64,000 nucleotides of DNA from Escherichia coli (GTDB taxonomy: Bacteria > Pseudomonadota > Gammaproteobacteria > Enterobacterales > Enterobacteriaceae). The notes beneath the pieces were generated by a model. That model was not told where the DNA came from. It did not search any database and worked only from the letters and a program-made list of their open reading frames with translations. The stretch lies in the NCBI RefSeq assembly GCF_050320075.1, contig NZ_CP190018.1; one strand, 5' to 3'. The translations under genes were made by a program, and so were the position numbers. Shown one piece after another: positions 37,738-39,491 of this stretch. How positions within the stretch are numbered: the first letter of the stretch is position 1; every line of letters starts with the position of its first letter.

Positions 37738-37747
37738 ATTGACATCC

Positions 37748-37769
37748 TCCACGCCCTGAAGGACGTGGA
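37748..37769 (-). repeat. Subterminal hairpin of IS605-family element (tnpB-proximal end)
   Basis: tccacg-ccctgaagga-cgtgga: 6-bp stem, 10-nt loop, about 10 nt inside the junction. Confidence 0.7.
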
Positions 37770-37781
37770 TCCCTGCTACGT

Positions 37782-38990
37782 TCAGGCTGTCGCCTGAATC
37801 ATTTCGGTGGGTTCCTGCTTCAACGGGCGGCCTGACTGCACCATCCCTCCACAGGCAAGAACGGCGTGCCCCGCCGCTAAAATGTTACGAGCGCCATTTA
37901 CATCGGCGTTCGCTGTATATCCACATACCTGGCATCTGAATTTACTTTGTGACAGGCGATTTTCTTTCGCTGTATGACCACAGCACGTGCAACGCTGGCT
38001 TGTGTACGCTGGCGAAACAGCAAGCACCTGACCGCCACGCCAGAGCTGCTTGTACTCAAGCTGGCGGCGCATTTCATACCAGCCCTGATCCAGTATCGAA
38101 CGGTTTAAACCTGATTTTGCCCGGACATTGCGCCCCGGCTGGCTGACCGTACCCGCTGCTGACTTTGACATGTTGCTGACCTTCAAATCCTCAATGACTA
38201 TCATTGCGTGGTTTTTGCTGACGGTCGTTGTGACTTTGTGAAGGTAGTCCCTGCGGATATTTGCGATACGGGAATGCAGTCGCTGTATTTTGCGTTTCTG
38301 CTTCTGCCAGTTGTTGCTGAATTTGACCTTGCGGCTTAACTGTCGCTGAAGTCTCGCCAGCGTCTTCTGGTTTTTCTGAAAACTGTTTACAGGCTCAAAG
38401 ACTGTGCCATCTGACAGCGTGGCGAGTTTAGCCACGCCAGCATCCAGCCCGACCATTGATGCTGAAGGGTGAACCGGAGTTGATACTTCACTTTCTGTCT
38501 GAATACTGATGTACCACTTACCGCAGGACTGGCTGACCGTGACATTTTTCACAACACCCGTGACCTGACGGCTATTCCGGTAGCGCATCCAGCCCAGTTT
38601 CGGCAGAAAAATACGGCTGTTTTCCTGATCGAGCTTAACGCCCTGCGGGTAGCGGAATGCATCATTCTGTCCCCGCTTTTTGAATCGGGGAAAAGCAGCC
38701 CGCTTCTGGAAGAAGTTTTTGTAAGCCCGCTCAAGGTCTTTCAGTGACTGTTGCAATGGCTGTGACGGGGCATCTTTAAGCCATTGCGTTTCAGTGGCAT
38801 TTTTCCACTCAACCAGCCAGGAAGCCATTTTCCCGTAAGGGATGTATTTATTACCGGCCTCATGATTCTCATTCTGAAGCGCCAGAGCACGATTGAAAAC
38901 GAAACGACATGCGCCTGCGAAGCGCCTCATTTCACACTCCTGTTGACCACCTGGTCTTAACTGGAATTTAAATGCCTGTAATCGTTTCAC
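37782..38990 (-). CDS. tnpB: TnpB (IS605 OrfB), RNA-guided RuvC-like endonuclease, apparently intact
   Basis: 402-aa ORF (GTG start); RuvC-I GLDAGV, RuvC-II VIEDL, zinc finger CTCCGH...CQVCG, Ruv[13 protein letters not shown]. Confidence 0.88.
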
Positions 38991-38997
38991 AGGTCAA

Positions 38998-39491
38998 ATG
39001 ATACTTTGGTCTATGAAAAAAGAAACCGATATCCGGCGTGGAAGGCATTGTGTTTTCCTGATGCATGTTCACCTGGTCTTTGTCACCAGATACCGACGCC
39101 AGATTTTTGACCATGACGCGACAGAAAAACTACGCACTTACTTTTCAAATGTATGTGCTGATTTTGAAGCTGAACTGGTTGAAATGGATGGCGAACCAGA
39201 TCACGTCCATTTGTTAATTAACTAACCTCCCAAACTGGCGATATCCAGTCTGGTAAACAGCCTCAAAGGCGTATCGGGTAGGTTACTGCGACGAGATCGA
39301 CCAGATATTGCAGTCAGGTATTACTACAAAGGCGTTTTGTGGAGTCCTGGCTATTTTGCCAGTAGCTGCGGAGGTGCGCCAATATCCGTCATCCGCCAAT
39401 ACATTGAACAACAGCAAACACCTGGTCAGGTGGAAAACCGCGCCTTATATCCCCGCCCTGAAGGACGGGGTTTTACGGCGCACCGGATAAA
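38998..39491 (+). pseudogene. tnpA: IS200/IS605 tnpA (Y1 HUH transposase) with in-frame nonsense codon
   Basis: N-terminal 75 codons end at TAA (39223-39225) directly after the HUH motif HVHLLIN; same frame continues with ...SLVNSLKGV...YYKGVLWSPGYFASSCGGAPISVIRQYIEQQ typical of the TnpA C-terminus. Confidence 0.8.
39451..39470 (-). repeat. Subterminal hairpin of IS605-family element (tnpA-proximal end)
   Basis: ccccg-ccctgaagga-cgggg: 5-bp stem with the same 10-nt loop as the other end, about 21 nt inside the junction. Confidence 0.7.

Follow-up and report, generated by a model that had tools for sequence, protein, structure and literature searches.

A transposase-deficient IS609 copy in yajI of Escherichia coli retains an intact tnpB and a predicted omega-RNA scaffold

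The window analysed here is a stretch of 64,000 nt from Escherichia coli (contig NZ_CP190018.1 of assembly GCF_050320075.1), within which positions 37739-39486 are occupied by a 1,748 bp insertion sequence (IS) of the IS200/IS605 family, a copy of IS609. It lies inside yajI, a lipoprotein gene, and carries an intact tnpB gene, a transposase gene (tnpA) broken by a nonsense codon, and a right end (RE) which, together with the 3' end of tnpB, appears to encode the scaffold of an omega-RNA (also termed right-end element RNA, reRNA), the guide RNA of TnpB. An earlier note, made from the letters alone, had described an IS605-family element with an apparently intact TnpB in an otherwise housekeeping region. 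The family assignment is borne out, but the element does not merely sit in such a region (gene order thiL-nusB-ribH-ribD-nrdR-[yajI 5' part]-element-[yajI 3' part]-tsx-yajD-secF), as it interrupts yajI. The features of the locus, with the evidence for each, are as follows.

37609..37738, plus strand: 5' fragment of yajI, the interrupted host gene, encoding a lipoprotein (RefSeq annotation; comparison with K-12 and strain Ecol_316)
37719..37738, minus strand: predicted guide segment TGAGTTGCGTCATCTCCTGG, the yajI flank directly 3' of the right end (by analogy with ISDra2)
37739..37888, minus strand: predicted omega-RNA (reRNA) scaffold, 150 nt (covariance model hit; covariation)
37748..37769, minus strand: right-end hairpin TCCACGTCC-UUCA-GGGCGTGGA, the loop being TTCA in DNA (covariation; direct reading)
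37782..38990, minus strand: tnpB (insQ), 402 aa, intact, GTG start (open reading frame; Pfam, NCBIfam and PDB searches)
39013..39429, plus strand: tnpA pseudogene, Y1/HUH transposase (RefSeq 'internal stop'; translations; codon comparison)
39430..39486, minus strand: left end, LE (K-12 empty-site boundary; conservation in relatives)
39451-39470, minus strand: subterminal hairpin of the left end, CCCCGTCCTTCAGGGCGGGG (matched by the right-end hairpin part of covariance model R1; direct reading)
39487..39491, minus strand: target motif and putative transposon-adjacent motif (TAM), TTTAT on the element strand (ATAAA in the window), belonging to the flank and not to the element (six E. coli sites; relatives)
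39487..39896, plus strand: 3' fragment of yajI (RefSeq annotation; comparison with K-12 and strain Ecol_316)

The gene yajI is uninterrupted in K-12 MG1655, and alignment with this empty site fixes both ends of the element: the K-12 sequence CTCA|ATCAAG corresponds in the window to CTCA[TTGACATCC...CACCGG]ATAAAG. The limits of 37738-39491 proposed from the letters were hence roughly right, with a start one base too far left and an end that took in the 5-nt ATAAA flank. When the flanks are joined, the resulting 279 nt match the unbroken yajI of strain Ecol_316 at 100% identity, so the insertion was clean, with neither duplication nor deletion of the target. The element's own orientation is that of the minus strand of the window; on this strand it runs from CCGGTG to GATGTCAA, and these ends are not inverted repeats of one another. 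Features of IS200/IS605 membership found at the locus comprise a tnpA frame of the Y1 HUH type, subterminal hairpins at both ends and the absence of a target-site duplication.

Over its whole length, the element shows 98.3-98.7% nucleotide identity to copies elsewhere in E. coli, among them those at the ydcL/ydcO site (the location of insQ in K-12) and those labelled 'IS200/IS605-like element IS609 family transposase' in RefSeq. Judged by this comparison with RefSeq-labelled IS609/insQ copies, the sequence is that of IS609, an element already catalogued, an identity that the earlier note had missed. The K-12 copy (insQ, also ydcM, beside ydcO) shares with it the length of 1,748 bp, the divergent tnpA and tnpB, the hairpins at LE and RE, the TTAT motif and a 402 aa TnpB, and the yajI copy is set apart by its own insertion site and by a TAA codon in tnpA at 39223-39225. 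Of 5,426 complete E. coli genomes, 4,858 contain an IS609 copy that spans 80% or more of the element, and the genome type of the window has two IS609-related places. The full yajI insertion is found in 340 of these 5,426 genomes, the site being uninterrupted in 5,083, and many E. coli chromosomes match positions 37500-39750 (2,251 bp) with 100% identity. At exactly this locus, RefSeq names the product of tnpB 'RNA-guided endonuclease InsQ/TnpB family protein' (WP_024189688.1). The yajI insertion is thus an ordinary one, annotated in around 340 public genomes, and as a finding it is of little weight, given that IS609 is catalogued and its TnpB already named as an RNA-guided endonuclease.

The open reading frame at 37782-38990 encodes TnpB at its full length of 402 aa, in agreement with the earlier note. 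Three Pfam domains are detected (HTH_OrfB_IS605, 4e-13; OrfB_IS605, 1.6e-34; Cas12f1-like_TNB, 9.4e-24), and the protein scores 388.9 bits against the NCBIfam model NF040570, 'RNA-guided endonuclease TnpB family', which has a cut-off of 100. Residues 3-376 align with the structures of TnpB from ISDra2 of Deinococcus radiodurans (8BF8, 8EX9, 8EXA and 8H1J; E = 8e-56), a homology extending along the full length of the protein. The catalytic triad of the RuvC domain and the zinc finger had been read as intact, and this alignment agrees: D183 (in GLDAGV), E267 (in VIEDL) and D363 (in ADVNGARNI) correspond to D191, E278 and D361 of ISDra2, and the CxxC...CxxC cysteines are C334/C337 and C353/C356. 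Disruption of the triad was looked for in the alignment and not seen. In ISDra2, the activity of TnpB is abolished by D191A and by E278A (PMC8612924). The sequence of the IS609 protein, which differs from those of the other sampled copies by 8-12 amino acids, thus gives no argument against catalytic competence. The top match among solved structures is an 'AI-designed RNA-guided nuclease' (9YYG/9YYH, E = 3.7e-64), ranking above the ISDra2 protein. Cas12f, of type V-F systems, has a homologous RuvC and zinc-finger core (PDB matches with E values from 1e-19 to 1e-5; the NCBIfam Cas12f2 model falls below its cut-off), but IS609 has no CRISPR array, being flanked instead by the halves of yajI, and its guide would derive from the transposon end rather than from a spacer. 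Nuclease-dead, RNA-guided transcription factors derived from TnpB (TldR) are known, on the evidence of the accessible part of PMC10705468; that InsQ is a domesticated protein of this kind is hardly credible, with all three catalytic residues present and aligned and tnpB still contained in a complete IS with LE, RE and tnpA.

Directly 5' of the left end, TTTAT or CTTAT is found at six out of six E. coli insertion sites (yajI; ydcL/ydcO; a TetR-family gene by ytfB; the gap between a DUF1869 gene and yeaQ; yfaY/yfaV; and upstream of yedK), with unrelated sequence beyond the right end. The left end could also be recognised in 16 relatives belonging to other genera; 15 of these have TTAT or TTAC at the equivalent position, and the last has TTGAC. 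Both in ISDra2 and in IS608 of Helicobacter pylori, the TAM of TnpB is the target site of the transposase (PMC8612924); on this basis we infer that the TAM of the IS609 protein is TTAT, or TTAY in the wider group, as opposed to TTGAT in ISDra2. IS608 inserts at TTAC (PMC8612924), in contrast to the TTAT of E. coli IS609, although some IS609 relatives also use TTAC. IS608 and IS605, both from H. pylori, otherwise resemble IS609 in peel-and-paste transposition, in insertion 3' of a tetranucleotide, in subterminal hairpins and in the lack of target duplication. The order of tnpA and tnpB is divergent in IS605, as in IS609, and the right end of IS608 also ends in TCAA. In ISDra2 the two genes instead overlap and are co-directional.

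The flank 3' of the right end varies at every insertion site, and the end of the scaffold is invariant. In ISDra2, the reRNA scaffold spans the tnpB 3' end and RE, and the last ~16 nt of the RNA derive from the flank (PMC8612924); the sequence of IS609 predicts the same arrangement. The terminus GAGGATGTCAA, at which both element and scaffold end (37739), is followed by the yajI flank TGAGTTGCGTCATCTCCTGG, which would act as the guide. Hence the predicted target would be TTTAT followed by TGAGTTGCGTCATCTC, that is, the uninterrupted yajI allele, which would be the sole such sequence. An empty yajI allele with exactly TTTAT does exist in the population, in strain Ecol_316. In K-12 and many other strains the insertion point reads TTGAT on the element strand, as against TTTAT in the carrier lineage and Ecol_316; such empty alleles would consequently escape cleavage if the TAM is TTAT.

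An omega-RNA locus had been expected at the 3' end of tnpB and the adjacent element end, and comparative analysis found a covarying structure there. Scanning a single genome for each species yielded 66 related loci, mostly from Enterobacterales, with 30-95% protein identity. Among the related loci and the E. coli copies, 48 distinct sequences share the terminus GAGGATGTCAA without variation, each followed by unrelated DNA. The predicted 150 nt scaffold is made up of the last 107 nt of tnpB, which it overlaps, and a 43 nt right-end tail. The last 170 nt of 45 related elements were aligned (alignment A1), and a structure of 45 base pairs in eight helices was evaluated against versions in which the 3' partners were slid and against shuffled controls. 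An RNAalifold consensus contained a 4 bp competing stem and missed a hairpin at the tnpB stop codon; this stem was swapped by hand before the slid and shuffled controls were run. Paired cells made up 93.7% of the total, as against 42-50% in the slid versions, a comparison biased in favour of the structure because it was drawn partly from the window sequence's own fold. Compensatory changes occurred in 21 pairs, compared to 8.9±1.6 when shuffled and 4-13 when slid, and the covariation score was 0.24, with 0.03-0.09 in the controls. Some of these changes fall at synonymous codon positions within tnpB, such as a pair in helix 2 that is GC or AU at 22:22. Helix 8, the right-end hairpin, has compensatory changes in five of its nine pairs, this being a stem under extra constraint as a single-stranded DNA hairpin recognised by TnpA, which tempers its covariation.

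Further support came from a covariance model (R1) built from only 21 relatives outside Escherichia (alignment A2). In the 64 kb window it has one significant match, at 37739-37888 on the minus strand, which is full length (169.4 bits, E = 5.5e-49) and on the correct strand for an omega-RNA; the left-end hairpin (E = 0.04), which has the loop TCCTTCAGGG in common with that of the right end, gives the sole further match below an E value of 1. At the level of DNA signature, the 3'-terminal 150 nt of the element therefore read as a conserved structured RNA, the expected omega-RNA scaffold, and the right-end hairpin would double as the DNA hairpin recognised by TnpA and the 3'-terminal stem of the predicted RNA. 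Non-coding RNAs at the 3' ends of tnpB genes, such as HgcC and the sotRNAs, are known to have a UUCA tetraloop like that of transposon right ends (PMC4615843), and the RE hairpin of IS609 likewise has a UUCA tetraloop.

Two side observations touch on the scaffold. Inside the yajI flank (37701-37716, minus strand), at a distance of 22-38 nt from the right end, is a terminator-like hairpin, CAGCGTGCTGACGCTG, followed by a T-rich tail; it is probably coincidental, and, if functional, would determine where a read-through omega-RNA terminates. Ten related loci from Photorhabdus, Klebsiella and Pantoea form a subgroup that retains the scaffold over its 5' two-thirds, together with a GGAGGATGTCAA terminus, and in which a longer, different 3' hairpin, CCCCCTCTTGAGTCACGAAGTGCGAAAGTGGGGG, takes the place of the stop-codon and right-end hairpins.

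The description of the element as carrying an apparently intact TnpB holds for tnpB itself but overlooked an in-frame stop in tnpA. This gene is transcribed divergently from tnpB, with the ATG at 39013 backed as the true start by the relatives, and reads TAA at 39223-39225 instead of the TAT of intact copies. With this stop repaired, the translation matches positions 2-126 of 126 in NF033573 (145.8 bits, cut-off 55) and shows the HUH motif HVHLL and the tyrosine region YIEQQ. As tnpA carries a nonsense codon, the yajI copy would be unable to move alone and is, by its sequence, non-autonomous. At its 3' end, CAG stands at positions 39427-39429, in place of the tnpA stop (TAG or TAA, after ...QQQTPG/S) seen in Serratia, Yersinia, Morganella and Pantoea relatives. 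This codon is CAG in 13 of the 14 in-frame E. coli copies sampled, the remaining one, at the yedK site, having TAG; as a result, the tnpA frame continues across the left end and out into the flank, which probably explains why RefSeq applies a 'missing C-terminus' label even to copies free of stops, although the family profile still spans the whole catalytic region. Q144* in one copy was accordingly dropped as a lesion, since the position is the ancestral stop in relatives.

Identical nonsense changes in tnpA recur across different insertion sites and haplotype backgrounds: TAT>TAA at codon 76 is shared by copies at yajI, yedK and ydcO, and TTA>TGA at codon 96 by copies at the TetR, yedK and ydcO sites. 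This recurrence could reflect gene conversion between copies, a hotspot of mutation or selection acting against an active TnpA.

Taken together, these features point to a non-autonomous IS609 copy in yajI whose tnpA is dead and whose tnpB and omega-RNA scaffold are intact, TnpB being a nuclease that would target empty yajI, a reading to which we give a probability of about 80%. On this model, IS609 would have inserted 3' of TTTAT inside yajI without target duplication; TnpB would bind an RNA of ~150-170 nt comprising the 3' end of tnpB, the right end and ~16-20 nt of yajI flank; and the resulting ribonucleoprotein would cut double-stranded DNA bearing TTAT then TGAGTTGCGTCATCTC, as found in the uninterrupted allele. 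Recombination with the occupied copy, stimulated by the break, may then guard the insertion against excision or against replacement by an incoming empty allele. The nuclease would act only where TnpA is supplied in trans or an empty allele arrives horizontally. Expression, assembly of the ribonucleoprotein, cleavage and any retention or drive effect are all predictions of this kind. In practical terms, the analysis yields base-precise boundaries, an inferred TTAT TAM, a scaffold model backed by covariation and, for a TnpB that is native to E. coli, the predicted natural target.

An alternative is that TnpB mainly modulates TnpA-catalysed transposition rather than acting as a nuclease. In older genetic work on ISDra2, TnpB reportedly inhibited transposition. 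A preprint, bioRxiv 10.1101/2022.10.12.511977, is entitled 'IS200/IS605 Family-Associated TnpB Increases Transposon Activity and Retention'. Such a role is improbable as the main one here: with tnpA dead there is nothing to modulate in cis, and an intact RuvC triad and a conserved guide-RNA scaffold are what a nuclease requires.

Several points weigh against an active guide RNA-nuclease system at this locus. A simple sigma-70 scan found no consensus promoter on the tnpB strand, and tnpB starts with GTG and has no obvious Shine-Dalgarno sequence upstream; a separate promoter for the omega-RNA may be unneeded, since TnpB processes its own mRNA into omega-RNA, according to the accessible part of PMC10278001. 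At a permissive threshold, no Rfam family reaches its gathering score across the scaffold. The weak matches, all on the tnpB strand and together extending over 37726-37909, are to HgcC (RF00062; 37726-37849, 23.8 bits against a gathering score of 50), RAGATH-18 (RF03064; 37812-37855, 28.1 against 44.9) and sot0042 (RF02656; 37748-37909, 17 against 88), scores far enough under these thresholds to place the scaffold outside the curated families. Because tnpA is dead, the nuclease would be without a target in its own cell unless TnpA comes from another copy or an empty yajI arrives. Lines of K-12 in a mutation-accumulation experiment showed zero transposition of IS609 (PMC5009759). The yajI copy is also young, being 100% identical among the carriers listed, so its own intactness says little on selection. 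No functional study of IS609 TnpB, under this name or as insQ or ydcM, was found in the literature, in which ydcM features solely as a quantitative PCR marker near Ter; an 'IS609' TnpB was purified in PMC12781874, the accessible part of which does not report activity for it.

The nonsense codon in tnpA, the missing promoter consensus, the GTG start, the immobility in K-12 and the youth of the insertion would all suit an inert relic, that is, a dead IS whose tnpB is intact merely from recency and whose TnpB and omega-RNA are neither made nor active in this strain. We regard this as unlikely. Compensatory changes have preserved the RNA structure, and the state of tnpB extends beyond this copy to older ones at other sites. 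In a sample of 17 E. coli copies, ten of them at the orthologous ydcO (ydcL/ydcO) site, tnpB is a full 402 aa open reading frame in all 17, with a ratio of nonsynonymous to synonymous polymorphism (pN/pS) of 0.29, whereas tnpA is broken in 12 and has a pN/pS of 0.83. The shorter gene has suffered at least six different inactivating lesions (three nonsense positions and three frameshifts or indels); if both genes were neutral, the probability of all six falling in the 489 nt of tnpA and none in the 1,209 nt of tnpB would be ~0.288^6 = 6e-4.

This pattern raises a further alternative, namely that InsQ is retained by selection unrelated to the transposase, whether as a drive against incoming empty alleles or through exaptation by the host. 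At the ydcO site, tnpB is intact in all ten copies (pN/pS 0.33, pS 0.023), and tnpA has nonsense codons or frameshifts in eight (pN/pS 0.70). The element is common in the species, as noted above, and plasmid gene drive has been proposed for IS-encoded RNA-guided nucleases, on the evidence of the accessible part of PMC11870625. However, the sample is small and was chosen without regard to phylogeny, gene conversion among IS609 copies is likely in view of the identical stops on different backgrounds, a pN/pS of around 0.3 denotes moderate constraint only, tnpB is broken in two relatives from other genera, and no phenotype of InsQ is known. Given the size and choice of the sample and the likely gene conversion, the signal is a lead rather than a result, and both the TnpA-independent role and the broader proposition, that selection keeps IS609 tnpB and its scaffold despite repeated transposase decay and an immobile element, by anti-loss drive or host co-option, seem doubtful at present. 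The preliminary contrast between a preserved tnpB and a decayed tnpA nevertheless makes the maintenance of TnpB after transposase loss testable in the most tractable of bacteria.

Copies reduced to tnpB alone are also found among the relatives. Three of the related loci have no tnpA between tnpB and the recognisable left end, which is situated 84-158 nt upstream of the former; these are tnpB-only derivatives. Another such copy, 93% identical and with no tnpA annotated, is carried by the 98.7 kb plasmid pMB7206_1 of E. coli strain 4314, where it is flanked by a lysozyme gene and a nucleoside triphosphate (NTP) pyrophosphohydrolase gene; the collection holds 574 plasmid-borne IS609-related places.

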